DNA from: a virus | Lineage: Duplodnaviria > Caudoviricetes | IMG/VR virus record: IMGVR_UViG_3300017971_004765 | Coordinates: 1-59,764 of that record | Direction: 5' to 3' (one strand) | DNA length: 59,764 nt | Shown here: one piece after another, positions 3,605 to 59,764 of the stretch | Layout of the letters: the number at the start of each line of letters is the position of its first letter | Position numbering within the stretch: the first letter of the stretch is position 1 | The notes under the pieces: model-generated | What the model was told of the DNA's origin: nothing | The model's input: only the letters and a program-made list of their open reading frames with translations | Databases searched by the model: none | Position numbers and translations under genes: made by a program

Positions 3605-3609
3605 ATGTG

Positions 3610-29357: not shown

Positions 29358-29404
29358 ATGCGCCCCAGGGAAGGGAGCAATAGGTACTACTTCTAACTTA
29401 TTTA

Positions 29405-34347: not shown

Positions 34348-34364
34348 TTTTTACACCATTTATT

Positions 34365-34679: not shown

Positions 34680-34680
34680 T

Positions 34681-36986: not shown

Positions 36987-37383
36987 AACCCTTCCATACC
37001 CCCTTGTTTACAGCTGGCGCGCCTGCCCAGAGTTCCCCGTCCAGCACCATAGTCCCCCTCTTGACAAAACTATTCGCGCCAATAATTCCGCCCCTCCCTA
37101 TAAAAACATTTGGTTCTATTACGGCATTGCTGCCAATGAATACATCGTTATCAATAGTTACGCTAGCCTTGTATGATTTGCCGCCCTCGTTTGTGTGCGT
37201 GTATATCTTTACCCCTGCGCATATAGTAACGTTGTCGCCAATAACAATGTCCTTATGGTAACCGTCCAGAATAACCCAGGGGCCAATCCAGCAACACTTG
37301 CCCATCTTTACGTTGCCGCTAATCAGCCGCTCGCACTCGCCAGCGAACTCGAGCGTCCTGACAGAATTACTATACTCGCTCAA
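36973..37383 (-). CDS. Hexapeptide-repeat acyltransferase
   Basis: VIGDNVTI...IDNDVFIGSNAVI...IGANSFV...WAGAPA. Confidence 0.85.
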   Translation of the reverse strand: MSEYSNSVRTLEFAGECERLISGNVKMGKCCWIGPWVILDGYHKDIVIGDNVTICAGVKIYTHTNEGGKSYKASVTIDNDVFIGSNAVIEPNVFIGRGGIIGANSFVKRGTMVLDGELWAGAPAVNKGVWKGYEKP

Positions 37384-38086: not shown

Positions 38087-39372
38087 CCCAATTTATCTTC
38101 GTATTTGTCCAAATACCCCTTCAGGGCAGGGAAGGCGCCCTCATCACCGATATACGCGCCGTCTATGTAAACAGCGTCTCCCAGGTGACCAATAGTCCTG
38201 GCAGCAACCAAGTTTTCGTTCCTGGGGGAGCTTTCTAGGTTCGCTATAGCAGTAAAGACGCCACCTTCTATCTTCTCTAGCGCCCAGCTATCAGTGAATA
38301 TCTGGCGCTCATAGGGTAGGGTATTAAGTGCATATCCATCCAAAACAGAAGGAACATTTACACCTGCAGCGTCCAAAATAGTTGGAACGATATCAACCAA
38401 GCTACAGAGACGCTTGGGGTGCTTGGAAACTGGGAAACCCTTGGTAATTAACGGTATTCTTATAGCTTCTTCGGATACGGATGGAGAATTACAGAAGTTT
38501 CCATTATGCTCCATCTCCCCGTGATCAGATGTAAGTATTATTTTTACCTCAGGATCATACTCTTCTAGTTTTACTATCAGGTTGGCGAGCTTGGAGCAAT
38601 CAAATAAGCTAACGCCTTCAACGTATAGCTTTACCATCTCCTCTAGCAATGAGTTATCTTCCTTAAGTTTCTCGCGCAGAGCAAAATCGAAAGCTCTAAA
38701 GTATGCCAGCTCTTGAAGAGCATATGGGAAGCTGTTATAACCACCTATCCTGTTTACTTCTTCTAGCGCTCTTTCCGATAAGTCAAACAAACTAATGTCG
38801 TGGCGATCACATATTCTCTTTATCCTTGGTATATATGAACCATTGTTTTGTGATATTCTATCTGCCCCACCAGTTTCATAATAATAAGGCTTATGAACAT
38901 CGAACAGGTGGAAAAAGAAAAAGTTGTTTTTCCCAACGATATTATTATCGAAAACATCTTCTATATACATATCTTCGTCGCCCTCAAGGGGCTCAAACAC
39001 GAGATTAAATCCACGAGTTATGCGCTGCGTCTCGAAAGTTGGATGCTCTACCCAGGCAATGTTGAAATATCCATTGCTACTAAGCATTTGCGGCAATGTC
39101 GGGTAACTCTTGGTCATCCCAGAAAAGAACGTAACCGTCTTGTGCTTATTCGGGTAAACCCCCGTCAACATAGATGCGTGCGAAGAAGGAGTATATGACG
39201 CGGGCGCATATGCGTTAGGAAAGAATTGTCCGTCCTCAGCCAGGAAATCCATAGTTGGAGTATACACCATATCTTTGGTTATGCCATACTTTTCTAGTTT
39301 AGATATATCGTTGAAACAAGATAAACAATCCAGGCGCAAATCATCCACAGAAATCAATACAATATTAGTCAC
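38077..39372 (-). CDS. Sulfatase-like (alkaline phosphatase superfamily) hydrolase/transferase
   Basis: ISVDDLRLD, YTPSSHASMLTG, HLFDVHKPY, TSDHGE; GTG start after SD GGAGGTG. Confidence 0.85.
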   Translation of the reverse strand: MTNIVLISVDDLRLDCLSCFNDISKLEKYGITKDMVYTPTMDFLAEDGQFFPNAYAPASYTPSSHASMLTGVYPNKHKTVTFFSGMTKSYPTLPQMLSSNGYFNIAWVEHPTFETQRITRGFNLVFEPLEGDEDMYIEDVFDNNIVGKNNFFFFHLFDVHKPYYYETGGADRISQNNGSYIPRIKRICDRHDISLFDLSERALEEVNRIGGYNSFPYALQELAYFRAFDFALREKLKEDNSLLEEMVKLYVEGVSLFDCSKLANLIVKLEEYDPEVKIILTSDHGEMEHNGNFCNSPSVSEEAIRIPLITKGFPVSKHPKRLCSLVDIVPTILDAAGVNVPSVLDGYALNTLPYERQIFTDSWALEKIEGGVFTAIANLESSPRNENLVAARTIGHLGDAVYIDGAYIGDEGAFPALKGYLDKYEDKLGWF

Positions 39373-40364
39373 CAGCGCACCTCCATAGGTTCCCAAAATT
39401 CCTCTATACCGTAATGCTCCTTAGCTGCCTGTTTCCATATCTTTGAATGCTCGTCCCACCAGTATTGATCGTCGCCAAACATAACGTACTCATAGAAAGC
39501 CTCCATTCTAGGGGCGACACTCTCGAAAGATAGGAACCAGGATGCCCAGCTGCGCGACTTCTCCTTCATAAGTTTGCAGAAGTCATCATTGGACGCGAGG
39601 GCACTAAGAACATTTCTCAAGTCTTCTTTATTGCCAACATTTATTATTGGGCACATAGGATTATGAACCCTGACTATTGGTTGAAGGCGGCACACAACAG
39701 CCATACCCATAGCGAGCGCCTCTTTGCTCGAGCCGCCAAAGTTACCAGCCTTGAACTTATCGAAATAAACGTCGCACTCTTTCTTTGCTTCTATGGCGGC
39801 GCTCGGAGGCTGATCCTCGATTATAGTTAGCTCAACATCATCCAGGGAATTACAAACCTCTATCAAAACGTCGGTGTCCTTGTAGTCCCTGCGAGAAGGA
39901 GTCTGGAGAACTTTCAGTGGGTGTCTTGGCTCGGGCCACTCAGGATAAGGAATACTCATAGCGTTAATATCAAATGGAATAGGGATATAATGGAACCTTG
40001 GGACAAAGCGACCAAGTTCTGGGACAGTTATAATTGGAATCTTGTATTTGGCTTGATAATTCCAGAAACCCCTGGACAGCATTCTAAGAAATCCGCCCCT
40101 AAACTCGAGGACAAAATTTGGGTGCTTATCTAAACCAAACTGAGTAGGGAAAGTGTCGCTCTGGTGGATAACATCTGCCCACTCTATGGCTTCCTCTGGA
40201 GGCTTAGCATTATTTGTGTCTTTTCTTGCTTCAGACATATCATAGTTGCTCATACCATTCAGAGACCAGCACTTGGCATTACTATTCGTACACTTGTTTA
40301 TAGCCTGGGCGCGGAACCAGTTGCCGCTGCCCATATCTGTCCAAGAAACATATAATATATTCAT
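39369..40364 (-). CDS. GT-B-fold glycosyltransferase-like protein (paralog of 34681-35697)
   Basis: MNILYVSWTDMGSGNW...QTPSRRDYKDT...EALAMG. Confidence 0.7.
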   Translation of the reverse strand: MNILYVSWTDMGSGNWFRAQAINKCTNSNAKCWSLNGMSNYDMSEARKDTNNAKPPEEAIEWADVIHQSDTFPTQFGLDKHPNFVLEFRGGFLRMLSRGFWNYQAKYKIPIITVPELGRFVPRFHYIPIPFDINAMSIPYPEWPEPRHPLKVLQTPSRRDYKDTDVLIEVCNSLDDVELTIIEDQPPSAAIEAKKECDVYFDKFKAGNFGGSSKEALAMGMAVVCRLQPIVRVHNPMCPIINVGNKEDLRNVLSALASNDDFCKLMKEKSRSWASWFLSFESVAPRMEAFYEYVMFGDDQYWWDEHSKIWKQAAKEHYGIEEFWEPMEVRW

Positions 40365-40966
40365 TTCTTCACATACCTGATACACTCGAAGCCTTCTGCG
40401 TACTCTACGCCAACCTTCCAGCCAACGTGCTCTGCCAGACCCCTTATCTTCTCGGGCTTAATGTATAGCCTGCCCCCCTGACTGGCATACGAATCCAGGG
40501 CCTCAATCTTTTTATCTAATGCAGTGGACCTAATGGGGATAAATACATCATATGGCTCTACGCGGCAATTCCAGGGTTGTATGTAACCAAAAACACTGCA
40601 AGACTTGAAAACCTTTATTGCTTCCCTGTACACGGCATTATGGTCCTGGTGCATATCTTCTGAGCAGGGCACATATACTGCCTCTATACCTGGGAGCTTG
40701 AAACGGATCTTCAACTGTTCCATAATTACGCGAATTTTTTCTCCATCAGAATCCATATGCTTATTGGTTAAATCATACTTGAATCTTAACCATTTACATA
40801 CATTCAAGATATCCAGGGAAGAATTCCACTCGTTCTCGAGATTTTCGCTAACGTCGGGGCACATAGAGAAAGTAACCACGGCTGCCTCGTCATCCCTCAG
40901 AGTAGACAGATAGCCGCCGCAGCCCAGCTCAACGTCGTCTGGGTGCGCCCCGAAGAAGAGGATCAA
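40361..40966 (-). CDS. PIG-L family deacetylase
   Basis: GAHPDDVELGCGG, HQDH, YASQ. Confidence 0.9.
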   Translation of the reverse strand: MILFFGAHPDDVELGCGGYLSTLRDDEAAVVTFSMCPDVSENLENEWNSSLDILNVCKWLRFKYDLTNKHMDSDGEKIRVIMEQLKIRFKLPGIEAVYVPCSEDMHQDHNAVYREAIKVFKSCSVFGYIQPWNCRVEPYDVFIPIRSTALDKKIEALDSYASQGGRLYIKPEKIRGLAEHVGWKVGVEYAEGFECIRYVKK

Positions 40967-41937
40967 GACAGAGCGTCCTCCAGAACGTTGCAGACATATC
41001 TAATCTCTCCCTCGTCAAGACCAATATAGAAAGGCAGCGTAACAAAATTATAATCAGTAAACTCTGCCCACGGATCAATATAATCCTCGTAGTTAGCCAT
41101 CTTGTGCAAGCGGCTGGTCCCCTGGCAACACTCTACGCCACGAATCTTAAGATTATCTAAAATATCACTTACATCTAAAGAAGACCCAGGAACCATAACA
41201 ACAAATGACTGGTAATTGTAATCATAGTTGACATCTCTTCCTTCCTGACCCCACACGGATACACCATCTGGAAGATACCTATTGTACTTGTGTGCTAAGT
41301 AATGCCTCCTAGAAAGTATAAAATCAAACTTATTTAGCTGAACAATACCAATGGCAGCCTGGATGTCTGACAACCTAAAGTTGTATCCAAAGTCGAAACC
41401 CGTGCGCTTGCCATGATAGATAATGTTCCTGGCCCTATCGTATAGCCTCTTATTGTTGGTGCACAGGCAGCCCCCTTCGCCAGTGCTAACTGGCTTGCGG
41501 GCGTGGAAAGAATAACAGGCGATCTCTGGTGGTACACTAGTATCAGCCACGCTGCCCAGCGAGCAGGCGCAATCCCCGATGGGCCACTCCCTGTCGCCAA
41601 CCTTGAGCCCTAGCACATCGACCCCCATATCGAAGTCGCGATCAGTTATCAGTGGCTCGTAACCGGCTGCCAGCACCTGAGTGAGCGTGGCGGGGAACGT
41701 TATATGTGGGATCCTTATGGTGTCCTTGTCCCAGAACGGATAGGTATGAAGAGCAGCTAGCAATGCAGTAGAACAGGATGACGTAGCAACCCCATAATCG
41801 TATCCCTCAATCTTGGCGACCATCTCGGCAAACTCGTCGGCCTTCTCGCCGCCAGCTACCCAGCCAGAGTCCAAAACATCACCAACAGCATCCAAAGTTC
41901 CCGGAGGGAAATATGGCTTACACATACGAACATTCAT
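40963..41937 (-). CDS. DegT/DnrJ/EryC1/StrS sugar aminotransferase
   Basis: SFHARKPVSTGEGG, GYNFRLSDIQAAIG. Confidence 0.92.
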   Translation of the reverse strand: MNVRMCKPYFPPGTLDAVGDVLDSGWVAGGEKADEFAEMVAKIEGYDYGVATSSCSTALLAALHTYPFWDKDTIRIPHITFPATLTQVLAAGYEPLITDRDFDMGVDVLGLKVGDREWPIGDCACSLGSVADTSVPPEIACYSFHARKPVSTGEGGCLCTNNKRLYDRARNIIYHGKRTGFDFGYNFRLSDIQAAIGIVQLNKFDFILSRRHYLAHKYNRYLPDGVSVWGQEGRDVNYDYNYQSFVVMVPGSSLDVSDILDNLKIRGVECCQGTSRLHKMANYEDYIDPWAEFTDYNFVTLPFYIGLDEGEIRYVCNVLEDALS

Positions 41938-42099
41938 CTATATACCTCAAAAACTTTCTTCCAACCCGGCTCCAATACCTCGTTGCATCTCTTACAAAAT
42001 CTAACCCTATGCACAACGCAACTATTAGGAAAACTAACTTCCTTTGTTACGCAACCAGGGTGACCAAATACTCTGCACCGAAAATTGTTATATTTATTC

Positions 42100-42954
42100 C
42101 TAACAGACGTTAATAGATTCCCACCAAAGAGTCCAGTCAACTGTTTCCTCAAGTCTAGAGATAAACTCATTGTCGATGTCTCTAAATCTATCCTCGTCGG
42201 AGATATCAGGAATCTTATTTCTCTCCTTGTCAATTACTATTTCACCATCTATTCCCAAGGATCTGACAAGCTCTATTAAGTCTTCAGTGGATACAGACCA
42301 TACCTTTCTTATGGTAGGCACATCCGAAACACAATTAATAGACGCCCTAGCCACATCCTTAACGTACTCAAAATTAAGGGTTGTATGCCCGCTATACACA
42401 GTAAATGGGTTACCATTAATCCAATTGTGCAGCAGCATAGGAAGAAACGCTTTATACTGAGGGGCAGGCTGCCTGGGACCAAACATATTCCAGGGTTTCA
42501 TAATGGATATATTTAGCCCTTTAGAAATAGCGCCCGCGCAAGCCATATCGCATGCGGCTTTCAGGGCGCCATAAGAATTCTCGTATGGAACGTTAGCCTT
42601 GGCGGAAGATATTTGCACCATCTTGTCGAAAGTCTTGATCTCCATTTCCCTTATGAGCGTGAGAACCTCACCCGTGGCTTCCTTGAAAGCATCAACGTAA
42701 GAAGGAGTGCGCACCCAGGCGCAATTAATTACGCCGTCATAGCCCCCATATGAGAACCCGTCTATGTCAGAAATATATACCCCAGGGTTGCCCTCCCATA
42801 TCGTAGGGGAATCGGAGCCCTCCTTCTCTATATCCCACCATAGTTGCCCAGTAACCAGCAACGAAACAACATCAACGTCTATGTTTTGTTTCAGCGCCTC
42901 CTCGCAAATAGCCGAACCAAGGAAGCCGCAGCCGCCAATAACACAAATCTTCAA
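42100..42954 (-). CDS. NAD-dependent epimerase/dehydratase
   Basis: KICVIGGCGFLGS, YGALK, NMFGP; probable TTG start. Confidence 0.88.
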   Translation of the reverse strand: MKICVIGGCGFLGSAICEEALKQNIDVDVVSLLVTGQLWWDIEKEGSDSPTIWEGNPGVYISDIDGFSYGGYDGVINCAWVRTPSYVDAFKEATGEVLTLIREMEIKTFDKMVQISSAKANVPYENSYGALKAACDMACAGAISKGLNISIMKPWNMFGPRQPAPQYKAFLPMLLHNWINGNPFTVYSGHTTLNFEYVKDVARASINCVSDVPTIRKVWSVSTEDLIELVRSLGIDGEIVIDKERNKIPDISDEDRFRDIDNEFISRLEETVDWTLWWESINVC

Positions 42955-42955
42955 A

Positions 42956-43318
42956 CTAATCCTTCCATACCCAGCTATTAGGCGCCAGATTAGTGCCATC
43001 CTTTATAACCACATTCGGATCAATAACACTGTTGGCGCCAATAACCACGTCACTTCCTATAACTACATCTCCAGTCACAACATCATAATCAGGGCTGCCG
43101 TCGGGCTTGCCCCTAATCGTCTTGACAACCCTAGTGCGGATCATAACTCCCTCTTCTATAATAGATCTGTCGCCAATATCTATGTTGCCAGAGCTGGCAT
43201 CCAGCAAAGAAAATGGCGAAACAACTACCTCTTTGCCAACAATTATATTTTCATTTCCGACCAGTATGCGGTCGCCATCGTCCTTTCCCAAAAGAATATT
43301 TCCCTTCAAAATAGGCAA
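42956..43318 (-). CDS. Hexapeptide-repeat acyltransferase-like protein
   Basis: IDIGDRSIIEEGV...VVIGSDVVIGANSVI. Confidence 0.75.
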   Translation of the reverse strand: MPILKGNILLGKDDGDRILVGNENIIVGKEVVVSPFSLLDASSGNIDIGDRSIIEEGVMIRTRVVKTIRGKPDGSPDYDVVTGDVVIGSDVVIGANSVIDPNVVIKDGTNLAPNSWVWKD

Positions 43319-43329
43319 AAAAACACCTC

Positions 43330-44352
43330 TTATATACCCAAGTAATATGACTGAAATACCCGCTGCAAAGTGGATCCTATTGGCGGCGGCGGGAACCTCT
43401 TCTCGTTTACTACTTCTCCCTCAGCTAACCTGACAGCCAAATATGGAACAGAGTAATCATTGGAAGCCACGAAAGACGAGATCCTTGGGTTAACCTCTAT
43501 CAAGTGATCGTCTATGAATTGTATGTTCACCCAGTAATTAAAGCCATATTCCTTGCAGATATGCTTAGCCATAGCCAGATTAGATGGATGCCTAACAACG
43601 CTAGCCATAGTGCAAACGTGGTCGCGCTTATCCTTAACGTGCAACACCTGGGACCATAGAACCTCGCCATCCTTGCACAAGCAATTAACGAAATACTCGT
43701 TACCAGTGTAATAGGGCATAACTACCCACTTCTTGCTGGAATCGTTAAACCACTTAGAAGCAGTAAACATATTCAGGAAGCGCGGATATGACACATAAAG
43801 AAACCCTGGTTTAAACTCGTTCCTAGCTATGAAATCATCTATCTTTTTAATAATGAATACCCCTCGGGTGCCCCTACCCCCGAGAGGTTTGACAACAAGA
43901 CCCCTCTTATCTACTCCCATCTGGTTCAATCGGAGCAGCATAGATTGCCCCGTCGCAACCTTGTATGGGATGCCAAACCTGTCGTATAGGGCAGCCTTGT
44001 TGGAAGCCTCCAGTATGACATCGGGGCTGGAGGCGAGTACCTTGTTTACCCCATCTCGAGAACCATTCAAGACCTTGGACTTTTGTAGCTTGGCGGCATC
44101 CATAGAGTTAAGAGGGAAGATCCACTTACAGGACTTAGCCGTGGCTTGAACAATAGAAATATATTTAGAATCAGAAACCTCTGGAACCACAACAAACCTG
44201 TCGTACAACCACCTATTGTTAGCCCAATCGTTGGAGTCGGTGCCAACGAGAAAAACAGAGGGATGAAACTTCTTTATGTCGTGGGCAATGGCTTCCCCAT
44301 TTGGTGCCCCACAGAATGGAATCATAATTCTCGTATCAGGAATAAACGACAC
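43330..44352 (-). CDS. ATP-grasp ligase
   Basis: VVKPLGGRGTRGV...GNEY...NIQF...IEVNPRIS. Confidence 0.88.
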   Translation of the reverse strand: MSFIPDTRIMIPFCGAPNGEAIAHDIKKFHPSVFLVGTDSNDWANNRWLYDRFVVVPEVSDSKYISIVQATAKSCKWIFPLNSMDAAKLQKSKVLNGSRDGVNKVLASSPDVILEASNKAALYDRFGIPYKVATGQSMLLRLNQMGVDKRGLVVKPLGGRGTRGVFIIKKIDDFIARNEFKPGFLYVSYPRFLNMFTASKWFNDSSKKWVVMPYYTGNEYFVNCLCKDGEVLWSQVLHVKDKRDHVCTMASVVRHPSNLAMAKHICKEYGFNYWVNIQFIDDHLIEVNPRISSFVASNDYSVPYLAVRLAEGEVVNEKRFPPPPIGSTLQRVFQSYYLGI

Positions 44353-44375
44353 CTATAAGTATATATACGTCATCC

Positions 44376-44390
44376 TTTATAAACCTTTCG
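44376..44390 (-). promoter_or_regulatory. BRE-TATA promoter for the glycan island
   Basis: CGAAAGGTTTATAAA just after the terL stop. Confidence 0.65.
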
Positions 44391-44393
44391 GTT

Positions 44394-45812
44394 TTATCGG
44401 GCTTGAATATCAACAATTCTGCCAGAAAAGTTATGAAACTCGGTCCCAAGATCATTCCTGGTCGGCAAAACGCCCCCCTTACCGAAAGGCGTGATCTCCC
44501 ATATGTCATCTGGAGCAACCCTGGCGCTAGGCGACTGGCTGATGCCCCAGGCTGCCAGTGCCAACGATATGACGCAATCGTCGTGCTGCCCCTTCGGAGC
44601 TTCGTAAGTAACATTGCCAGCGTCCGTAACAGAATACTCGAACATCTCGAGTTCGCGCAATACCTCCATAAGAACGTTATCCGTGCTCCAGGGTGGCACG
44701 CTTATCATTTCCCTCTCTATGCACATAGCCAAATTGTCTATCAGAGGGATCTTTGTGGTCCTGCTAATCTTGTATGGATATATATTCGTGCCCATACGAA
44801 CCAAGATATCGAACAGCGGGTCGCCAGCACCTGTGGCATCCAGCCACACCTCGGCGCCATTCCAATCCTGGGCAAGCTCTGCTATATGGTTTATCTGCCT
44901 AGCCCAATCCATCTTATTAAAACGCTCTATGTATGCAACCCTGCCAGTTTGTTTCTCCATAACCACTATAACTGTGAAATCTATTTGCTTGCCAACGTCC
45001 ACGCCCATAATGTATTGCTTACCCTCCATCGGGGTATTAGAGATCCTGAGTTTGGGATTAATTATTTCGTCTAGACCCTGGAAAACCTCTCCGCCGCCAG
45101 ATATAAATTCAGCTAGCCATTCCTGCCTGAAAACCCTATCTGGATCGTTCTTCCTGTGATACTCGAACTCCTCTTCTGGGACATAAGGCGAAACGTCGCT
45201 AGAGAAAGTCCAAGACTTGTAATACTTGTCACTGGGATCTTGCCCCTTCAAGAATGCTTGATAAAACCAGTTCTTTCCGAAAGGTGTAGAAATAATTGCC
45301 GCCCATCCAAGTTTTGTAGCGAGGCGGGGCTGTATATACTGGCTCCATATCTCTTCATTTATTCTGGAACCCTCATCCAGAACTACCCAATCCAATGTTT
45401 CTCCAAGGAGCTGATCTGGCTCCACGCACGACTTACCAACAACTTCGGATCCATTATCCAGGCGGATGAACTTAGTATGCTCGCTTTGTTTATCAACATA
45501 TGGCTTAATAATTGGGGTGTTTACAAGCCTGTAAACCTCCCTAAAAACCTTCTCAGAGAGCGTATATGTCTGTCCTATAATCCACCCACGCGTATCAGGG
45601 AGGCACACCAGCGCCGCTAGAGCCTCGTGCGCGGCTGCATAAGTCTTCCCAGATCTTACGCCACAACAGAGGATACGAAATCGGTGGGTATCAAGATGAA
45701 ACGGAATCTGTGCTGGATGGGGCTCGTACCCCACCATCCTGAACACTTTCCACTTCATCTCCCTCGGAACGTGGGGCGCCGACTTCGGGGCTTTCTTCTT
45801 CGCTTTCGTCAT
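44394..45812 (-). CDS. terL: Terminase large subunit
   Basis: Walker A GVRSGKT, Walker B VVLDE, STP, nuclease GVDVG...HDDCV. Confidence 0.93.
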   Translation of the reverse strand: MTKAKKKAPKSAPHVPREMKWKVFRMVGYEPHPAQIPFHLDTHRFRILCCGVRSGKTYAAAHEALAALVCLPDTRGWIIGQTYTLSEKVFREVYRLVNTPIIKPYVDKQSEHTKFIRLDNGSEVVGKSCVEPDQLLGETLDWVVLDEGSRINEEIWSQYIQPRLATKLGWAAIISTPFGKNWFYQAFLKGQDPSDKYYKSWTFSSDVSPYVPEEEFEYHRKNDPDRVFRQEWLAEFISGGGEVFQGLDEIINPKLRISNTPMEGKQYIMGVDVGKQIDFTVIVVMEKQTGRVAYIERFNKMDWARQINHIAELAQDWNGAEVWLDATGAGDPLFDILVRMGTNIYPYKISRTTKIPLIDNLAMCIEREMISVPPWSTDNVLMEVLRELEMFEYSVTDAGNVTYEAPKGQHDDCVISLALAAWGISQSPSARVAPDDIWEITPFGKGGVLPTRNDLGTEFHNFSGRIVDIQAR

Positions 45813-51131: not shown

Positions 51132-51842
51132 TTAACCAAAATCCTTCGTCTTCAACTTGATTACCAGCGGCTTGCCGTTGCGCCGCAGCAGCAGCGGCTC
51201 CGTGCGCGCCACGATACCCTCAGCCATGCGCTCACCGTCGCCCTCCTCCATAGAGACGAATGACGGGAAACCCTGGCGCACAAGCTCCACGATGCCGCCC
51301 AAGCCCGTCTTGTAGCCCCACACGGGGACCGCCTTTATATCTAGCTGGGCAGCAATATCCTCCACGGAACTCCTCTCGAGCCACCAGTTGCCCACCAGAA
51401 CGTCGAACAGCCGGAAACTGGGGACCGAGGAATACGCGCCGCCCCCATTGATCTTCGGACCATAGCTCTCACCGAATAGGACAACTGGACCATCCATATC
51501 AGGGAACGCGGCTGCAAGCTTATCAACCGTGAACACCTTATCGAACAGATCGACCAAACCGAGCCTCTCAAACATACTGGGGTCAGTCTTGTCGGTCCTG
51601 CCCCCATAAAATACTGTGGGACCGATTACCTCAGTGGCGCAGCCACCCTCCATACAGTTGGGCTCAAAAATAATTCTAGTGTTCGTGCCATCAATCTTCT
51701 CGGTGACCGTCCACCTGCGAATCAGGGCGGCTTCCTTGAGGCGCAAGTGGTCCTCGTCAGGGATAACTTTGAAGTCATCACCCCTGTTGTATAGGGTGTC
51801 TATTTTAGGATACTTTGGGTACACGGGCGGAGCCATATTCAT
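51132..51842 (-). CDS. RNA ligase (Rnl2-like nucleotidyltransferase domain)
   Basis: YPKI, TEKIDGTN, LFGE, FRLFDV, EGIV, KLK. Confidence 0.85.
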   Translation of the reverse strand: MNMAPPVYPKYPKIDTLYNRGDDFKVIPDEDHLRLKEAALIRRWTVTEKIDGTNTRIIFEPNCMEGGCATEVIGPTVFYGGRTDKTDPSMFERLGLVDLFDKVFTVDKLAAAFPDMDGPVVLFGESYGPKINGGGAYSSVPSFRLFDVLVGNWWLERSSVEDIAAQLDIKAVPVWGYKTGLGGIVELVRQGFPSFVSMEEGDGERMAEGIVARTEPLLLRRNGKPLVIKLKTKDFG

Positions 51843-51854
51843 AGAATAAACCCC

Positions 51855-54115
51855 CTAACCAAAAAATCGGTATCCACAACTCCTACAAAACTTGTCGCCA
51901 ATGTGGACAGCGCCCTTGCCACACAGGTAACATTTAACTTTGGCGTCCCTCAAGTGAGAGCCGCACGCATAACAATACTTATCCCTAGTAGGACGCATCT
52001 CCTCGCAACACGTACAATACTTAGAAAACATATCCTTCATACCAATCTCCTGGAACATATCAAGACCTCAAAACCATAATTAGCCCCGCGCCAAAACCAA
52101 CAAAAATCATAGATGCGAATGGGACCACGGCAAACAGGGGGGCGCCAGCGTTAACCATAGAAACAGAAATGGCAGCAACAATAAAAAGAAGCACTCCAGC
52201 TATACAGGAAACCATAATGCGCATAAGCAAAAGATCAATGTCCATATTACTCGCCGCCCTCAATTATACTATCAAGAGCCTTCTTAATAGTCCACCCATC
52301 AACATCGAAGCCCACACTCAGCGACACCATAGACTCATCCGAAAAGTATATCTCCTCGAGCCCCTTCCGAACATCTATCTGCTTAGCCAGCAACCCAACA
52401 TATTTGTCAACGTCGCCAGGGGCATAGCGAGCCGCCCTCTCTATGGCTTCCCCCAGGTGCTGCTCCAGCCCCAGGGAGTGCTTGATGGCGCAACGCATAC
52501 AATGCGGGAACCACGGCTCCTGGGGCATCACTAATCATCCTCCTCCAATTCGTCCAGGAAAAAGGAGACGGCGTAAGTAAGAAGCACAAAACATATACCA
52601 ATCGCAAAAAATGTGGCGTATTCAGGATGCGCCCTAAGAAGCTCCACAATGCCCATAGTGCCCAAAATCAAAGCGGCAGAAATAAAGCCGCCAATGGCTA
52701 GGTTACGCAGCATCATTGAAAAACATCTCTTCCAGAATTACACCAAAAAATAGAGTCAACACAAATATAAAGATACCAATAACAAACCAGGGAATAAAAT
52801 CAGGATGGTTCTTAAGAAATACAATCAAGGAAACAAAACCAGTCACCAAGGCCACAGCTAGAATTAAACCAGCAACGTAGTGGATCGCGCCCACTTCAGG
52901 CGCCCTCCATAGCGGAGAGGGCGGCGCGCGCCCTGTCGAGCCCCACCTTGTAGCCGTCGCGCACATTCTCCCAGTATTCCAGGGCGGGAGAATTACCGGG
53001 CTCCACCTGGGATAGGCGCCCCAGGGAACGGTTATAATCTTCTACCCTATTAGCCACATCGCTCCTAATCAGCTTTACAATATACTCGTATTGCCCATCA
53101 GAAAGCTCAACAGAAACCATACAAAAACACCACAATACTATACGCGCCCAGAGTATATAAATGTTTCGTTTTGCGCATCCTCTAACCCGTGCTTATAGCC
53201 GTGTATGAAAGCCCGAATATAGTGGAACCTAATAGCCTCTATCATCTCGTCGCCCACATCGTGGACCCCCAGCAAGTCGGAAATATATGACCAGTGCTCC
53301 TCTGCCAGGGGCTCAGCTCTACTTGTTAAATTGGGCATAGGCAACAAGTCCCGATAATCTAGCTCTACTCCCCCCCTTATAGGGCAACAATGTAATGCGC
53401 CGCCGTAAACCTCCTGGCGGCAGAAGGGGCATAATCCTATAGGTTCCTGACTCATACATACATCACCAAATGGCTCCGCAAGTTCAGGTTCGTTTTCGCT
53501 CATTCAGCCAGCCTCCTTAAAGGCATCGCACTCTGCAATGAACATTGAATCCATATCCTCGTTCAGAAGGGTGCACCAAAGATCCCATTCTTCTCTATGA
53601 GCCAGCCACTTGGCATCCATGTGCTTACACTTCTCACACTTCCAATCAAAGACGCAGACCGCCTCCTCCATACAAGTTTCATCGTATCCAAAAATCACTC
53701 AGCCCGCCTCCTCCTTCCCCTTCTCATCGCAAGCCCAACATAAATTAAGGTCGCCGCGCTGCACGGTCATGTCGCCAGGGAAGAACGCAAAACAGCCATC
53801 GCACCAGATCATAAGGCAATTATCATCCATATTAAGGCGCTCGATAAGATCCTGCGTGAGCCTCTCCAAGGCCCGCAACCTAAATTCTACTTCAGACTCC
53901 TTCAATAAGCCGCCTCCCATCAATCACTCAGGGCGCCCCCTCTCTTCTGGCGAGTCTATAGTCATAGTGTAGCCGCAGTGCACGGGCCACCCATGCAATA
54001 TGCATTCCTTAGGGTCAACCCTCTCGCGATGCCCGCACTTGGTACACCAGACAATACCGCGCCGAAGCCTAGGGGTATTACGTATCCATTCATCTGCAAT
54101 CATACATGCACACAT
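51855..54115 (-). CDS. Run of about ten small hypothetical proteins, several Zn-finger (51855, 53504, 53699, 53924) or membrane (52060, 52531, 52703)
   Basis: Tightly coupled ORFs with CxxC pairs or hydrophobic segments. Confidence 0.55.
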
Positions 54116-54262
54116 AGGAACAATACGCGCCCATAGTATATAAATGTTTCGGTAGCCAGGGGGCTGGTGACAGGTGACTGGGGAAACTGAAAGTTATGTG
54201 CGCTGATGGGGCCACCCCTCCTCCTCAATGGGTATAGGTTCCTTTGGACTGGAGCCTTTGTC

Positions 54263-54353
54263 GAAGGCTGAAGGCTGAAGGTCGAAGGCTGAAGGCTGAA
54301 GGCTGAAGGCTGAAGGTCGAAGGCTGAAGGCTGAAGGCTGAAGGTCGAAAGCT
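54263..54353. repeat. Heptamer tandem repeat GAAGG(CT/TC), 13 copies
   Basis: Read directly; followed by an 11-bp inverted repeat at 54374-54403. Confidence 0.95.
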
Positions 54354-54428
54354 GAAGATGAAGAAAGAGAAAGAGGGGACCGGTTCCCCATTACCGGTCC
54401 CCTGATAGATGCCTAATAGATGCCAGTC

Positions 54429-54954
54429 TTACGCATAAGGTCTAAGCTCAGCCTTGATAGCTTGGTATGGCTTCCTGTGGGGAGCATATGTGTGAAAGAC
54501 TTCTTGGTCTACGGGGCACACATATACGTTCGGACCGGTCCGCATAAGTTCGTTCCCGTGCGTTGGGCAATACGCTATTCCCCAATTGAATGTTGGCCTC
54601 ACTTGCGATTCCTCCTCAGATTTCCCAAGGGTTTTCCGATAGAACGTCTCTTGCGAATTCCAGACTACATTCTTCGCAAAAACGTGCTTCCTCTTTTCCG
54701 CATTCGCAAAGAGACTTTCGGTGTTCGTCAATTGCTTGGGCTCTTATCTTGCCAGCTAGCATCAGCAGACCTTTCCTCTTTTCCCACGAGGTAGAATCTT
54801 CGAAGATTCTATCCCACACTTTCCATGCTTCGGGATTTTCAGGCTCTCTTGACCAATCCCAAAACGCCTTAGCGAATTCCTCTGCGCTTTCCCAATTGCT
54901 CCGTTTTGTGTTCATTTTCGTTTCCTGTCCCAAAAGGGGCGTTTTGTAGTACAT
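54429..54954 (-). CDS. Two overlapping hypothetical ORFs (54429-54731, 54616-54954)
   Basis: CPTH...CPVD Zn motif in the first; promoter variant at 54963. Confidence 0.4.
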
Positions 54955-55146
54955 AGCTATGCCTTATAAAGATTTCCTAAAATCAGACCAAATTCAATCA
55001 GAATATCACAACCTTAACGTTAAGGTATCGATAGGTTTTGATTAGATGATACTGACTGGTATTCAGTCACTGACTGAGAGTCAGTCAAAAAAAACCGACC
55101 AGTCGGTTTAGGCCCCCCAAAAAACGGCTATAAAAAAGCAGAGATT

Positions 55147-55231
55147 CCATCCATCCATCCATCCATCCATCCATCTATGCCATCTATACCCTGCCATCTA
55201 TACCGTGCCATCTATACCCTGCCATCTATAC
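55147..55231. repeat. (CCAT)7 followed by four 14-bp TGCCATCTATACC(C/G) units
   Basis: Read directly; the last unit is partial. Confidence 0.95.
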
Positions 55232-55255
55232 AGAAAAAAGAAAAATGGGCGCCTC

Positions 55256-55414
55256 TCAGCGCCCGCCGTAGAAAAGCCTTCTCTCCAGGCATGCCCTGCA
55301 CATACACCCAGGCGAGTGAGTGCTATCTGCCCAAGCCCTCGAAGGCTTAGCGGTCTGCGCTGGTTTCTTGCTCTTCTTGCTCTTCTCGATGGTTTCTCTC
55401 ACACGAGTCACCAC
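55256..55414 (-). CDS. Small basic protein with HxxxCxCxxC motif
   Basis: Hand-translated ...THSPGCMCRACLERRLFYGGR; between promoter 55431 and a T-run terminator. Confidence 0.5.
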   Translation of the reverse strand: MVTRVRETIEKSKKSKKPAQTAKPSRAWADSTHSPGCMCRACLERRLFYGGR

Positions 55415-55481
55415 TAACCCATTAGCGCCCGAGTATATAAATGTTTCGGTGGCGCTCGAGCCCCCGGCATTAGAAGAAGGT

Positions 55482-55594
55482 GGGGCGGTTGCCAGTTGAC
55501 CGGCAACTGTTCATCAGGGTTGGCAGACCCCTCTTACTCGAAGCCCGCTTCTTGGCGGATCTCCAAACCCGCCTCACGGGACCGCCCCGTTGCC
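55482..55594 (-). ncRNA. Candidate multi-hairpin small RNA A
   Basis: Promoter 55613; closing stem GGGGCGGT/ACCGCCCC; hairpins GGCGGGT/ATCCGCC and GTTGCCGG/CTGGCAAC. Confidence 0.55.
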
Positions 55595-55640
55595 AATATA
55601 GCTATGCAGCCCGAGTATATAAATGTTTCGTTTCCCCACG

Positions 55641-55774
55641 GGGCGGGGGCAGAAACCCAGGCAGGCACTTCTTCTCCTGCCCAGGCCCCCGGAACCCCAG
55701 GGGATAGTGCGAAGCGGTGGAGCAGCGCCCCAGTGAGCGAGTGCCCCCACCCGCTGTGTCGGCGCCCGCCTCAC
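55641..55774 (-). ncRNA. Candidate multi-hairpin small RNA B
   Basis: Promoter 55796; stem GGGTGGGGGCA/TGCCCCCGCCC enclosing three hairpins. Confidence 0.55.
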
Positions 55775-55816
55775 ACATATACTTATGCAACCGAAGCTTA
55801 TAAATGTTTCGGTTGT

Positions 55817-55886
55817 GTGGGCGCAATCGGTTAACCAGCAAAGTGCCCGGTTTCGGGTTATGCCGACCAGCGCCGACGCCACCCAC
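55817..55886 (-). ncRNA. 70-nt hairpin small RNA C, copy 1
   Basis: Promoter 55909; 65/70 identical to 56425-56494 with a compensatory stem change. Confidence 0.7.
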
Positions 55887-56069
55887 AATATAGTCATACG
55901 AGGCGCCCCTTATAAATGTTTCCCTCGGAGCCTCGAGTCAGCTAATTTAATCGGATTTGTCCTGACCCAGCAAAATTAGTTAGAACAGGGATTTGTCTCG
56001 AGCCAGATTTTTTACTCGTAATTGTCGCCAGCCCCCATAGCCAAAAAAATAGGGGCGATTTGTCGCCCC

Positions 56070-56357
56070 TCAGTATTCGCTCGGGAACAGGATCGTTGTG
56101 GCGCTCCTGTCCGCCTCGGTTATGATCCAGATCTTGGGTATGGGATACTTGCCCTCGTAGACGCTGAACAGGCGACCCTCGCCCTCGAGTGCCTCGTCAT
56201 TCAGGGCCTTGTCCTCGGGGCGCAAGTCGCCCCAGTCGCCCTTAGTGTGTCTCTCATAGCTCCCCACCACAAATCGGTAGAAGTCCATATCTTCCCACAT
56301 AAGGGCGTCCACGCCAGCCGTAGCCACCAGTTGCCCGATGTCAAACAACACACACAT
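56070..56357 (-). CDS. Conserved mobile-element protein (GDWG...WIITEADRS.TTILxPxEY type)
   Basis: RHTKGDWGD...ED...RLFSVY...WIITEADRSATTILFPSEY; SD GAGGTG. Confidence 0.7.
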   Translation of the reverse strand: MCVLFDIGQLVATAGVDALMWEDMDFYRFVVGSYERHTKGDWGDLRPEDKALNDEALEGEGRLFSVYEGKYPIPKIWIITEADRSATTILFPSEY

Positions 56358-56424
56358 CACCTCTACAAGTACATTGCACGCCACGCTTATAAATCTTTCG
56401 TTTCCTCGAGCCTCGAGAAAAAGT

Positions 56425-56494
56425 GTGAGCGCAATCGGTTAACCAGCAAAGTGCCCGTTACCGGGTTATGCCGACCAGCGCCGACGCCACTCAC
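56425..56494 (-). ncRNA. 70-nt hairpin small RNA C, copy 2
   Basis: Promoter 56514; followed by ACTTTTT. Confidence 0.7.
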
Positions 56495-56560
56495 GTATAA
56501 CACTATGCGCCTCGAGTATATAAATGTTTCGTTTCTGGCAAAAAAGAAAAAATTGGGGGA

Positions 56561-56760
56561 TTATTCCCCCTTAACTATGAGCAGTTGCCCACGCCCGAGC
56601 CCGAGCCCTACGCCAAACTTGGGGTAGCACCCCTCACACATAAACGCCCACGGCCCCATGCGAGTCCGCCCGTCAACTTCTGCGGGCTTCCCGCAAAAGT
56701 CGCATTTCGGGCGCTCGAGCACCTCAGCCGTCCGCAAATCCTTGGTTGTGGTCACGCCAT
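56561..56760 (-). CDS. Small Zn-finger phage protein (start approximate)
   Basis: CDFC...DGRTRMGPWAFMCEGC...GVGLGLGRGQ. Confidence 0.65.
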
Positions 56761-56831
56761 CACCGAATAGTAGTATGCAGCCCGAGTATATAAATGTTTC
56801 GTTTTGGGCAAAAAAAGAAAACGGGCGCCCC

Positions 56832-57014
56832 TCAGATGAGAGACGCCACCCGATATCGCTTCTCGCAGCCCTCACAAGTGACGACATAGTTGGCGTCAGG
56901 CTCAACCAGTCGCTCGCACCCGCAATGGGGGCACTCGACCTCCGCCACCGAGTCCCACGTCAGGGGCACGGTCACGGTTCGCAGATTTTCGGTTTCACGC
57001 ATCCGCATCACCAC
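56832..57014 (-). CDS. Zn-ribbon protein
   Basis: CPHCG...CEGC; own promoter and terminator. Confidence 0.65.
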   Translation of the reverse strand: MVMRMRETENLRTVTVPLTWDSVAEVECPHCGCERLVEPDANYVVTCEGCEKRYRVASLI

Positions 57015-57065
57015 CTTGTCCTTGGATTCAGAGTATATAAATGTTTCTGAAAAAAGAGGGGGCGG

Positions 57066-57272
57066 TCACGGGATATCCGTGACCTCAAACTTGACGATCT
57101 CGACGCTCTCCAGCTCGGGGACCACGCGCTCCCACGCCTCGGGGGGCATGTCGAACGCCTTGATGACAGCGGCACGCTCCGCCGCCTTGTCGTTCTCCGC
57201 CTCGACCTCGACGGTGACGGTTGCCACCGCCGGGGTCTCGAAGGTATACTTGTATGTTGCCACACAGGTCAC
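57066..57272 (-). CDS. Small acidic hypothetical protein
   Basis: VEVEAENDKAAERAA; own promoter. Confidence 0.6.
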   Translation of the reverse strand: MTCVATYKYTFETPAVATVTVEVEAENDKAAERAAVIKAFDMPPEAWERVVPELESVEIVKFEVTDIP

Positions 57273-57467
57273 CGAATATACCTACGCAGCCCGAGTATAT
57301 AAATGTTTCGGTTATGGTCACTTCTTGAATAGATCCTTAGCCAACAGAATGAGAATCAGAACAGAATGACCATATTCTGCTGAATCATATTCAAGAAGAA
57401 TTGCGCATCGCTCAGAGTCACGACATTCACCTCCTTTAACCTGTGCCAATACCGTAGTCATCGGTGT

Positions 57468-57596
57468 TTATAAATGTTTCGGTTTCCGGCCCCTCTTCTT
57501 GGGCGGGGCTCCCAGAATGAACGCCAGCGTCTCCGCCAGCACCAGCACCACCACCGCAACAATGGCGAGCCCAATATCAGCAAACTTGAAACGCAT
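57468..57596 (-). CDS. 42-aa single-TM peptide with basic tail
   Basis: SD AAGGAGGTG; MRFKFADIGLAIVAVVVLVLAETLAFILGAPPKKRGRK. Confidence 0.6.
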   Translation of the reverse strand: MRFKFADIGLAIVAVVVLVLAETLAFILGAPPKKRGRKPKHL

Positions 57597-57886
57597 CACC
57601 TCCTTGGTAAGGTATCGGCGGGCGACCTCACGGGGACGGGAAGCTTGACGAAAGCTTGGCCACCCGCCGACTGAATACCGTTGCGCACTCGAGTATATAA
57701 ATGTTTCCTTGGTGCCCACCGAAACATATTTAAGCAGGGATGCTAATAGGCTATGGATCCTTTTTTTCTTTTTAGGTGAGAAATGTGTTTGTTAGAAGAA
57801 TAGGAGAATTCATCGGATTCGCAGCGTGTCTAACTATGGCTTTAACCATTTTTGCGGGCACAGTTATAGTTTTATTATTGAGGTAT

Positions 57887-58117
57887 TCAGTCATCACACT
57901 CACCTTTTATGAATTTAACAGCATCATCAGGGTTATCAAATAGAACGATGCTGCATACTGGACATTCATACTCATCCAATGCTGAATCAGAAGGTATGCT
58001 GTCTTCTTTCTTAAATCCTAGTTCACCGTTTTTATCTAAACCAACGTAATATACAACCAATTCATTGGTATAATTTACCAGATGTGTTATCTCTTCACCA
58101 CACACGGGACACTTCAC
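57887..58117 (-). CDS. Zn-ribbon protein
   Basis: CPVC twice. Confidence 0.65.
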   Translation of the reverse strand: MKCPVCGEEITHLVNYTNELVVYYVGLDKNGELGFKKEDSIPSDSALDEYECPVCSIVLFDNPDDAVKFIKGECDD

Positions 58118-58275
58118 TTCAAGTTGCCTCCTAGCAATGATAATCTACCGTAATCAGGTATCCTCCCTCTATATAACCGCTATGTCGCACAACCACAATA
58201 CCGCCCACGCCTCGGGCGGGAAACGACTCTTGGGTTTCACCGCCCAACTCACGGGCTCCGCCTTCTTGTAGCGCC

Positions 58276-58473
58276 TCATATCAGTCCCACCTCTTTCGCC
58301 AGCTCGATCCGCCTCTTCACCCGCTCGAGTTCTGGGTTATACTCCTCCTCGGGGTATTCCTCGTAAAGCTCCCAGCACTCGGGGCAGCGCCACGAGCGCC
58401 CACCCAAGAACTGCAGATCAGCGCCGCACTTGACGCAGACCTCCACGCCGAAGCCATCACGCACCAGCTTCAT
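58276..58473 (-). CDS. Zn-ribbon protein, probably leaderless
   Basis: CVKC...CPEC; ATG about 20 nt from promoter 58493. Confidence 0.65.
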   Translation of the reverse strand: MKLVRDGFGVEVCVKCGADLQFLGGRSWRCPECWELYEEYPEEEYNPELERVKRRIELAKEVGLI

Positions 58474-58578
58474 AAGATACCCCTTACAGGCAGAGTATAT
58501 AAATGTTTCGTTCGACCCACAAAAGAAAAGATGGGGGCTCGAGTCCTATTAGCGCTGGTTGTTAACTCCACTTAACGT

Positions 58579-59202
58579 TCAATCCAAGTCTTCGATCTGA
58601 TCTCTGATCACATCTAAATCCTTCACCGATTCTATCTTCTCGCTCGCTAGGTCAGTAAAGACCTGCTTTACTGGCTCCCGCAATCGTTTTGGCACGACCC
58701 AAACATAGTCGGGTAAAAAATATCCGCTGACATGCATATAGTTCCGCATATGCTCAAACGCGCGAATCATTCTGTGAGCATTGGTTGCCTTCTCTATTGG
58801 TCGTGTTCGGATTGCCGTTTCAATCTCACGCTCACATTCTCTGTGCGCCATAGAATTGTAACGATACTCATCCCAGTTTGCTTGGAGTGCATCGCATGAT
58901 GGCCACGCTGATCTTGACGCAGAACTACATATCTCTCCCATAAGACGCATCTGTTGAGGTCCGTAGCCAGTAAAGTTCGCAATCGAATACGAGGGGTCAT
59001 CCCGCGAGAATTTGCGTTCCGTCCGTTGCGCAATCTTGCAAAACGTGACAAGACTTTCACGAAGCACGGGTTTGCATTCGTCTGGCTCACGTTCACCTGT
59101 CTGTGCTTCTAGGATGCACCTTGTACCGTCAACTATGTCAAGCAGGTTCTTCTTGACCTTTTCGGGTCGCATAACCATCTGGTTGTTAACACCTCTTAAC
59201 AT
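58579..59202 (-). CDS. Hypothetical protein
   Basis: 207-aa ORF. Confidence 0.6.
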   Translation of the reverse strand: MLRGVNNQMVMRPEKVKKNLLDIVDGTRCILEAQTGEREPDECKPVLRESLVTFCKIAQRTERKFSRDDPSYSIANFTGYGPQQMRLMGEICSSASRSAWPSCDALQANWDEYRYNSMAHRECEREIETAIRTRPIEKATNAHRMIRAFEHMRNYMHVSGYFLPDYVWVVPKRLREPVKQVFTDLASEKIESVKDLDVIRDQIEDLD

Positions 59203-59412
59203 TCAGACGAATCCGTAGTTCTCGACCTCGACAAATACCCCGTCATATGTTACCTCACCGTTGAGTATCCGCCCTTGGTCTCGGTAGGCAGCCGCCGCCG
59301 CCTCCTCCTCAGCTCGGGCGATCTCCGCCTCAATCTCCTCGACCAGCTCCCGGTCGAGCTGCTCCTCGATTTCCGACTCAGCTACATCTCCATAGTCCAT
59401 GTCAGTCACCAC
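59203..59412 (-). CDS. Small acidic protein
   Basis: Very Glu-rich; own promoter. Confidence 0.6.
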   Translation of the reverse strand: MVTDMDYGDVAESEIEEQLDRELVEEIEAEIARAEEEAAAAAYRDQGRILNGEVTYDGVFVEVENYGFV

Positions 59413-59433
59413 ATACTACTACGCAGGCGCCCC

Positions 59434-59640
59434 TTATAAATCTTTCGGTTCGCCCGCCCACCAAGAATCGTCTCTCCGATCCTCCGCCTCGAGTTCGGTG
59501 AGTATCACATAGCGCTCCCACGCCCGATCAGCCGCCCACCTCATCTTGGGGCGGGAGTCCATTGGGTTCGGGCCGTCTATGTAGTAGTCGTCACTCGAGC
59601 AGTGCTCCAACCCATAAGTCAGCTCGTCCATGTCAGTCAC
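59434..59640 (-). CDS. Small acidic protein
   Basis: Own promoter; shares the MTDMD start with 59203-59412. Confidence 0.6.
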   Translation of the reverse strand: MTDMDELTYGLEHCSSDDYYIDGPNPMDSRPKMRWAADRAWERYVILTELEAEDRRDDSWWAGEPKDL

Positions 59641-59764
59641 CGAATAGTAGTATGCAGGCGGAGTATATAAATGTTTCGTTTCCGGGAAAAAATAAAGAGG
59701 GGCGGATTAGAAATGTACCTCGTATCTTCCAACCCGCCCGTCGCCGTACTTGAGAACAACCCGC

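Follow-up and report, generated by a model that had tools for sequence, protein, structure and literature searches.

We analysed a 59,764-nucleotide (nt) stretch of viral DNA (IMG/VR record IMGVR_UViG_3300017971_004765, positions 1 to 59,764; the whole stretch is referred to here as the window) in which a preliminary description, made from the sequence alone, had pointed out a duplicated 70-nt element. The explanation that we favor, with moderate confidence, is that the two copies of this element are paralogous genes for a structured non-coding RNA of ~70-75 nt, and that they belong to an early, promoter-dense region of an archaeal tailed virus. The repeat, its fold, the strand asymmetry of that fold and the geometry of promoters and terminator are seen directly in the sequence. 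The two copies are as follows.

55817..55886, minus strand: hairpin RNA copy 1, read from 55886 to 55817; 25 base pairs, AAAC loop, pair 4/67 G-C; the repeat continues to 55815.
56425..56494, minus strand: hairpin RNA copy 2, read from 56494 to 56425; 25 base pairs, GUAA loop, pair 4/67 A-U; the repeat continues to 56423.

A repeat finder recovered the element as a two-copy family of 72 nt with 93% identity (55815-55886 and 56423-56494). Alignment of the minus strands placed the differences between the 70-nt cores at positions 4, 34, 35, 37 and 67, which confirms the two copies and five differences reported previously. Positions 4 and 67 pair with each other, as G-C in copy 1 and as A-U in copy 2. 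Positions 34, 35 and 37 are three of the four bases of the apical loop, which reads AAAC in copy 1 and GUAA in copy 2; we take the latter to be a GNRA-type tetraloop. The stem and loop motifs of the preliminary description (GTGGG/CCCAC versus GTGAG/CTCAC, and AAAC versus GTAA) are thus correct when read on the minus strand. Similarity between the copies ends 2 nt (AC) past the foot of the stem, and apart from the promoter module the flanking sequences are unrelated. The repeat is therefore bounded by the predicted start site at one end and by the foot of the stem (+2 nt) at the other. Furthermore, the repeat finder returned no second non-promoter repeat of comparable length and identity within 54000-59764. 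Contigs from two DNA sequencing runs, belonging to two studies, match the window exactly over both copies and so add no variants; the sole nearby difference between runs and window lies at position 56222, inside an open reading frame (ORF) of 95 amino acids (aa). No RNA run was listed among the sequencing runs with this region, a result that bears on expression in neither direction.

Folding of the minus-strand RNA predicted the same unbranched rod for both copies, with 25 pairs arranged in four stems. In order, the rod consists of a 7-bp terminal stem, a 2x2 loop, a 5-bp stem, a 3x1 loop, a 9-bp stem, a 3x5 loop, a 4-bp stem and the tetraloop. The terminal stem pairs the first base of the 70-nt core with the last, and all 25 pairs are standard pairs in both copies. 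The predicted energies are -35.1 kcal/mol for copy 1 and -33.2 kcal/mol for copy 2 (z -3.04 and -3.57), none of 200 shuffled sequences was as stable, and the lowest-energy fold makes up 33-41% of the ensemble. In both copies bases 1-6 are unpaired with a probability of 0.01, compared with 0.17-0.93 in 10 ORF-bearing cassettes of the region.

The plus-strand RNA folds more weakly (z -1.89 and -1.26), and with DNA parameters neither strand beats its shuffles (z -0.59, -0.86, -1.47 and -0.65). On the minus strand six of the 25 pairs are G·U, four of them inside the 9-bp stem, and these account for all of the non-Watson-Crick pairs. It is because of these six pairs that neither the plus strand nor the DNA form outperforms its shuffles. 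The G·U pairs and the promoters agree in orientation, both being on the minus strand. This asymmetry bears on the possibility that the element works as DNA, either as a protein-bound or extruded imperfect palindrome (an origin, packaging or regulatory site) or as a set of promoter decoys with an irrelevant transcript. A compensatory change from G-C to A-T would preserve a DNA palindrome as well as an RNA stem, and both iteron-like GACAAATC motifs (three in 55954-56064) and tandem repeats (55146-55231) occur in the region. However, the DNA folds are no better than shuffles, the six G·U pairs become A·C mismatches on the other strand, and the element starts at the predicted start site instead of spanning the promoter. 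We therefore regard a role at the DNA level as very improbable.

The proposal that each copy has its own promoter held up, since BRE/TATA elements (B recognition element and TATA box) were found directly ahead of both. The elements that delimit the two units are listed here.

55887..55925, minus strand: copy 1 promoter; BRE-like element 55925-55917, TATA box TTTATAA 55916-55910, 23-nt spacer 55909-55887.
56495..56533, minus strand: copy 2 promoter; BRE 56533-56525, TATA box TTTATAT 56524-56518, 23-nt spacer 56517-56495.
56418..56422, minus strand: run of five T residues (T5), two bases past the foot of the copy 2 hairpin (after AC); likely archaeal termination signal.
56555..56570, minus strand: hairpin and T-run terminator, ending the upstream 67-aa zinc-ribbon ORF.
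56051..56070, minus strand: hairpin and T7 terminator, ending the 95-aa ORF.

A strict promoter motif, defined as BRE-like GAAAC or GAAAG followed by TTTATA[AT], has 17 matches in the window, all on the minus strand and all but one (16 of 17) within 53167-59677. Where a unit bears an ORF, its start codon (GTG or ATG) is found at about the 22nd-28th base after the TATA heptamer, mostly at the 24th or 25th, without a ribosome-binding site. Such spacing is the geometry of archaeal BRE/TATA promoters with leaderless messenger RNAs (mRNAs). Both hairpin copies begin at the 24th base, as had been noticed before, although their promoters carry different TATA variants and their 23-nt spacers are unlike each other. 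Across 53131-59677 the minus-strand promoter modules are near-identical over 40 nt, combining the BRE-like element, the TATA box and a conserved GC[AG]TA...TAT spacer. The array uses two TATA variants, TTTATATACTC and TTTATAAG, and these may correspond to different timing classes.

Terminators isolate both units from upstream transcription, the one at 56570-56555 serving copy 2 and the one at 56070-56051 serving copy 1. Read along the minus strand, the first part of the locus consists of the zinc-ribbon ORF, its terminator, the copy 2 promoter, copy 2, AC with the T5 run, the 95-aa ORF and its terminator. The second part consists of a 120-nt spacer, the copy 1 promoter, copy 1, two cassettes designated X and Y, a 52-aa ORF and a terminator, with X, Y and the ORF each led by a promoter. 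Oligo-T is an archaeal terminator, and copy 2 reads as a self-contained promoter-hairpin-T5 unit. Judged as independent small RNA genes, both copies have a promoter and a predicted start, and the T5 run follows copy 2 only.

Several observations weigh against two stand-alone RNA genes, and the first concerns covariation. The preliminary description had reported internal covariation and inferred selection on RNA structure. What remains of both claims is a single compensatory pair (4/67), changed on both sides, and nothing beyond that pair among the two sequences. The other 24 of 25 pairs are invariant, and a pair-shuffle covariation test has no power with two sequences (263 of 500 shuffles reach the observed value). 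In simulations, five random substitutions kept all 25 pairs in 1.7% of trials, a figure that rises to 7% with transition bias, whereas two point substitutions fell in one pair and restored pairing in 0.4% of trials. Conservation of the structure is thus read from two sequences and one compensatory pair, with no homologue found. Additionally, some true ORF cassettes match the copies in how structured their first 70 nt are (z -4.7 at 57272, for example).

The small number of copies, the invariant pairs, the transition-biased simulation and the lack of a homologue that would show conservation are what one would expect if a GC-rich segment that folds by chance had been duplicated neutrally and fairly recently, in which case the compensatory pair is accidental and the element has no function. 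Yet the unit that was duplicated is the hairpin, it begins at the predicted start under two promoter variants and between unrelated flanks, and no comparable non-promoter repeat was reported in 54000-59764. The rarity of a restored pair in the simulations, the G·U asymmetry and the z-scores of the folds also speak against chance, and we consider a neutral origin improbable. Our case for an RNA is the sum of independent features and not of covariation alone, because the G·U pairs match the promoters in orientation, the boundaries are sharp between unrelated flanks and there is no other comparable repeat.

A second difficulty is the 3' end of copy 1, for which the features downstream of the two hairpins need to be considered.

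56070..56360, minus strand: leaderless ORF of ~95 aa between the copies, with its own promoter (TATA 56393-56387).
55636..55774, minus strand: cassette X, ~139 nt, with its own promoter (TATA 55804-55798) directly after copy 1; GC-rich, no plausible ORF.
55455..55593, minus strand: cassette Y, ~139 nt, with its own promoter (TATA 55623-55617); GC-rich, no plausible ORF, multi-branched predicted fold.
55414-55256, minus strand: leaderless 52-aa basic ORF, in unit 55247..55414.
55264-55247 and T-run, minus strand: first strong terminator downstream of copy 1, following the 52-aa ORF.

The next promoter begins immediately at the end of copy 1, and no T5 run occurs for 641 nt after it. Copy 1 may therefore be only the 5' end of longer transcripts, unless these are trimmed back to the stem. 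The main rival to our interpretation builds on this arrangement and holds that each copy is the 5'-terminal leader hairpin of longer mRNAs, stabilizing or attenuating transcripts that continue past copy 2 into the 95-aa ORF, or past copy 1 into X, Y and the 52-aa ORF, with internal promoters adding nested transcripts. It draws further support from the position of the first strong terminator, which lies after the 52-aa ORF, and from the fact that T5 alone may terminate only in part. Moreover, the cassette with start site 57671 opens with a 5' hairpin, behind which come a ribosome-binding site and a 42-aa ORF, so that 5' hairpins serve as mRNA leaders in this region too. In contrast, the copies cease to resemble each other 2 nt past the stem foot, with unrelated sequences and genes beyond that point, every downstream gene is served by a complete promoter of its own (112-131 nt further on), and a T5 run directly follows copy 2. 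Weighing these points, we think a leader function possible but unlikely.

The third difficulty is that both copies begin with GUG at the position where leaderless ORFs of the region start. In copy 2 the frame stays open for 35 codons and in copy 1 for 94, with 24 codons in common, and these frames could in principle encode a short basic peptide as a leaderless micro-ORF. However, the two frames end differently, that of copy 1 crossing the next promoter and cassette X and that of copy 2 stopping in the next TATA box. All five differences between the copies fall at codon positions 1 or 2 and cause four amino-acid changes and no synonymous one. The candidate peptide would have an isoelectric point (pI) of 10.5-10.7, compared with a proteome median of 5.1 (44 ORFs), and the start GUG is buried in the 7-bp stem, with the unpaired probability of 0.01 given above. 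The longest frame over copy 1 and X found no word-sharing protein in a collection of 5.8 billion proteins (one frame, 58-188 aa). Of the explanations considered, a translated micro-ORF is the one to which we give the least credence.

Searches for relatives of the element returned little. The region gave no match to GenBank phages with megablast or blastn, and the 70-mer compared by blastn with phages and plasmids gave chance matches only (E of at least 0.1). An exact 18-mer of the RNA and an 18-mer of the promoter core were both absent from IMG/VR, and no metagenome contig contained a gapped 22-base pattern taken from around the apical hairpin. The promoter 18-mer does occur in metagenome contigs, at 89 loci; blastn and tblastx of the window against a set of loci that included these 89 found nothing in them beyond one 25-nt promoter match. 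The search proposed in the preliminary description, a covariance model (R1) run against viral collections, yielded no homologue beyond the two copies themselves, which score 101.7 bits (copy 1) and 101 bits (copy 2) and were its only matches in runs with default filters over 86 and over 90 sources. With filters off, the best score in the Halorubrum phage Hardycor1 and the metagenome contig L055 was 17 bits, in DNA of 74-78% GC, and the next best score in the whole window after the two copies was 12.3 bits. Since the lineage of this virus is unsampled in the collections, these empty searches say little about conservation.

The element was also compared with known RNA families. No Rfam 15 family (4227 families, gathering score) matched in the window, and at E up to 10 the interval 54900-56900 gave six weak matches, none overlapping either copy and none a transfer RNA (tRNA). 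ARAGORN found 0 tRNA genes in the window. A tRNA or tRNA-like RNA was rejected on the basis of these searches and of the lowest-energy fold, which is an unbranched rod with no cloverleaf. C/D box small RNAs (sRNAs) carry a C box (RUGAUGA) close to their 5' end and a D box (CUGA) close to their 3' end; inspection showed both boxes to be absent from the two 70-nt copies, and this class was rejected. H/ACA sRNAs are recognized by an ACA box on the 3' side of the lower stem, by a pseudouridylation pocket and by tandem G·A pairs in a kink-turn or K-loop. In the hairpin the ACA at 69-71 overlaps the stem, the largest internal loop is 3x5 and there is no pseudouridylation pocket, so an archaeal H/ACA sRNA was rejected; a kink-turn or K-loop was likewise rejected, as no unpaired GA dinucleotide is common to both copies. 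Additionally, no repeat-spacer structure was seen in the region.

An antisense sRNA directed at targets within the window was rejected as well. The longest perfect complement of the hairpin elsewhere on the minus-strand RNA is 10 nt, a length that 170 of 200 shuffles reach or exceed, and shuffled RNAs usually attain 10-11 nt of complementarity in the window. With almost no single-stranded stretch in the rod and no complementary target in the window, binding of a protein is the more likely mode of action.

If the two copies are RNA genes, their expression can be pictured as follows. Host RNA polymerase would transcribe each copy from the minus strand, using the BRE/TATA promoter of that copy. 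The surrounding block, dense in promoters and composed of tiny genes, resembles an early or host-takeover region. The transcript would begin at the first base of the 7-bp terminal stem and fold into the rod-like hairpin. Pairing of the 5' and 3' ends should protect the RNA from exonucleases and would hide the 5'-terminal GUG from leaderless translation. The transcript of copy 2 would end at the T5 run, and the 3' end of copy 1 could arise by read-through and trimming back to the stem. The hairpin RNA might then bind a protein as a decoy, sponge or cofactor, with apical loops specific to each paralogue. Transcription, stability, early action and protein binding of the hairpin RNA are what we infer from this arrangement, and a role as a protein-binding decoy is put forward only tentatively. 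The preliminary description had likewise suggested an early, highly expressed RNA that is perhaps a decoy or an inhibitor of host defense, and these suggestions remain conjectural.

The preliminary description had gone further and proposed a set of viral small RNAs arranged as cassettes. The layout is real: four promoter units are without a plausible ORF, namely copy 1, X and Y and, further upstream, copy 2. The proposal fares less well for X and Y as RNAs, whose folds are no better than shuffles (z -1.4 and -0.6), and copy 1, X and Y share one downstream terminator with the 52-aa ORF, so that these three are perhaps not separate small RNAs. The 5' end of X is fully paired (probability of bases 1-6 being unpaired 0.00). 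Y folds as a closed multi-branch without a tRNA or Rfam match, and may be what was previously called a tRNA-like RNA. On L055, an unrelated metagenome contig of 8.8 kb, the same BRE/TATA core stands before tandem short ORF-less units on the minus strand (3300-3720 and 6500-6750), with three GC-rich units of ~80-110 nt and, elsewhere, three promoters just ~70 nt apart. Because this contig carries the same promoter module before ORF-less units, the cassette layout appears not to be unique to the virus studied here and may recur in other archaeal viruses.

The block in which the hairpins lie, 53.1-59.7 kb (the last 6.7 kb), holds very small ORFs, many with CxxC pairs, and none of Pfam, PHROGs and NCBIfam yielded an informative family for the small early ORFs. 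The 95-aa ORF between the copies found no match in Pfam, PHROGs, NCBIfam or a PDB sequence search. It belongs to a family that is widespread among the viral contigs of IMG/VR, with 113 relatives there at ~40-56% identity. All five upstream regions inspected among these relatives have bacterial-type ribosome-binding sites, and none has a BRE/TATA promoter; it seems that the gene came from bacterial phages and was converted here into a leaderless archaeal one. Model R1, run over 80 of the 113 loci, found no RNA match near any of them. The unit at 57480-57671 on the minus strand, with a 5' hairpin (z -3.75; probability of bases 1-6 being unpaired 0.02), the ribosome-binding site GGAGGTGA and a hydrophobic ORF of 42 aa, stands out from the leaderless genes around it in having a leader.

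Several other repeats occur in this part of the window. The three copies of GACAAATC are spaced 36 and 67 nt apart in the AT-rich 120-nt spacer upstream of the copy 1 promoter (55954-56064, minus strand). This motif was seen four times in the window against 1.67 expected, a count that 8 of 100 shuffles reach, and it may be a regulator binding site. Tandem repeats in 55146-55231 and 54249-54371 comprise 14-nt units (TGCCATCTATACCC), (TCCA)n and, inside an ORF, 7-nt GAAGGCT units. Both sequencing runs carry one extra 14-nt unit at 55205, which shows that copy number varies. Inverted repeats and T-runs lie next to the tandem repeats, at 55040-55140, and this stretch of tandem and inverted repeats may be an origin or packaging region.

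The IMG/VR record is linear, 59,764 bp long and estimated to be 35% complete. We read it as a tailed archaeal virus. Structural genes for the tape-measure protein, major capsid protein, portal, MuF-like protein and large terminase are on the minus strand, as are a PAPS reductase, an Rnl2-like RNA ligase and a large sugar-modification block. The best GenBank matches of the large terminase are Thermus phages (35% identity) and Halorubrum phage Hardycor1 (31%); its IMG/VR relatives are only 27-33% identical (five loci), and a search of genome contigs gave one match, in a bacterial genome. A 207-aa early ORF has no relative in IMG/VR. Thus the collections searched (IMG/VR, GenBank phages and genome contigs) contain no close relative of the virus. 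The proteome is moderately acidic, many early ORFs having a pI of 4.0-4.4, and the host is probably a halophile.

The sugar-modification block spans ~17 kb on the minus strand (27000-44400) between the portal and terminase genes and is unusually large for a viral genome. It encodes several glycosyltransferases, a UDP-GlcNAc 2-epimerase, a DegT aminotransferase and a sulfatase, together with a radical SAM/B12 enzyme, an FkbM methyltransferase and an ATP-grasp protein. The Rnl2-like RNA ligase (Pfam RNA_ligase, E 2e-16) lies at 51132-51842 on the minus strand beside the PAPS reductase, 4 kb downstream of the RNA cassettes. Any connection of this ligase with the small RNAs, for instance that it joins the paired ends of the hairpin, is pure speculation. 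In both DNA runs, contigs over 55185-59764 have a word depth of ~18-20, compared with ~11-12 for the contig covering 50000-54292 (~1.6-1.7x). Contig depth is a weak measure. The excess might arise if the promoter-dense block lay within a genome segment that occurs more than once, for example a long terminal redundancy.

Eukaryotic viruses are known to encode small RNAs by which the host is disarmed or reprogrammed, and such RNAs have recently been described in bacteriophages as well. The adenovirus VA RNAs and the EBER RNAs of Epstein-Barr virus are ~160-170 nt in length, are transcribed by RNA polymerase III, bind proteins and occur as paralogous pairs (VA-I/II and EBER1/2). The hairpin resembles them by analogy only, in its dedicated promoters, rod-like and highly paired fold, paired ends and paralogous pair. 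It differs from them in that they are longer, depend on RNA polymerase III and belong to another domain of life, and it shares no sequence or structural homology with them.

The Racr anti-CRISPRs of phages are reported to be stand-alone virus-encoded small RNAs, formed by solitary repeat units and proposed to be protein-binding decoys of host defense (PMC10651486). The hairpin would likewise be a small non-coding RNA unit encoded by a virus. Racrs are reported to mimic the CRISPR repeat of the host; the hairpin is 70 nt long and rod-like. Genes for tRNAs are reported from haloarchaeal tailed viruses (PMC13532342, PMC8651126). These are stable RNA genes of ~70 nt in which, as in the hairpin, a 7-bp terminal stem joins the 5' and 3' ends; the cloverleaf, however, is absent from the hairpin.

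Archaeal H/ACA and C/D guide sRNAs are single-hairpin RNAs of 50-75 nt, and an ACA overlaps the 3' end of the stem in both copies. The hairpin differs from these guides in having no large internal pocket, no shared kink-turn or K-loop, no C box (UGAUGA) and no D box (CUGA). Stabilizing or attenuating mRNA hairpins also lie at the very 5' end of a transcript, and the U-run after copy 2 is a further likeness; the difference is that the element here was duplicated as a sharply bounded unit before unrelated sequences that have promoters of their own.

By analogy, the hairpin would work most like the structured decoy RNAs encoded by viruses (Racr, VA and EBER), while being a member of none of these groups. 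A non-exhaustive survey of the archaeal-virus literature turned up genes for tRNAs and RNAs related to CRISPR, but no structured small RNA encoded as a gene of its own. It is plausible, with moderate in silico support, that the hairpin is a new, orphan virus-encoded small RNA.

Should the hairpin be a real and abundant early RNA, it would offer a compact and testable handle on the conflict between archaeal viruses and their hosts, one that is 70 nt long, comes with natural paralogues in which the loops are swapped and carries a portable promoter. It would also mean that functional cassettes in the promoter-rich early regions of viruses of this kind escape gene callers. More speculatively, and with considerable doubt on our part, archaeal tailed viruses may carry an unrecognized class of RNA effectors of host takeover, namely short end-paired RNAs expressed from dedicated strong BRE/TATA promoters as stand-alone cassettes. 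The 70-nt hairpin would then be the clearest example, its differing tetraloops serving to titrate or redirect a host RNA-binding protein, for example a defense or an RNA-processing factor, and such a class would be the archaeal counterpart of the VA and EBER RNAs or of the phage Racrs.

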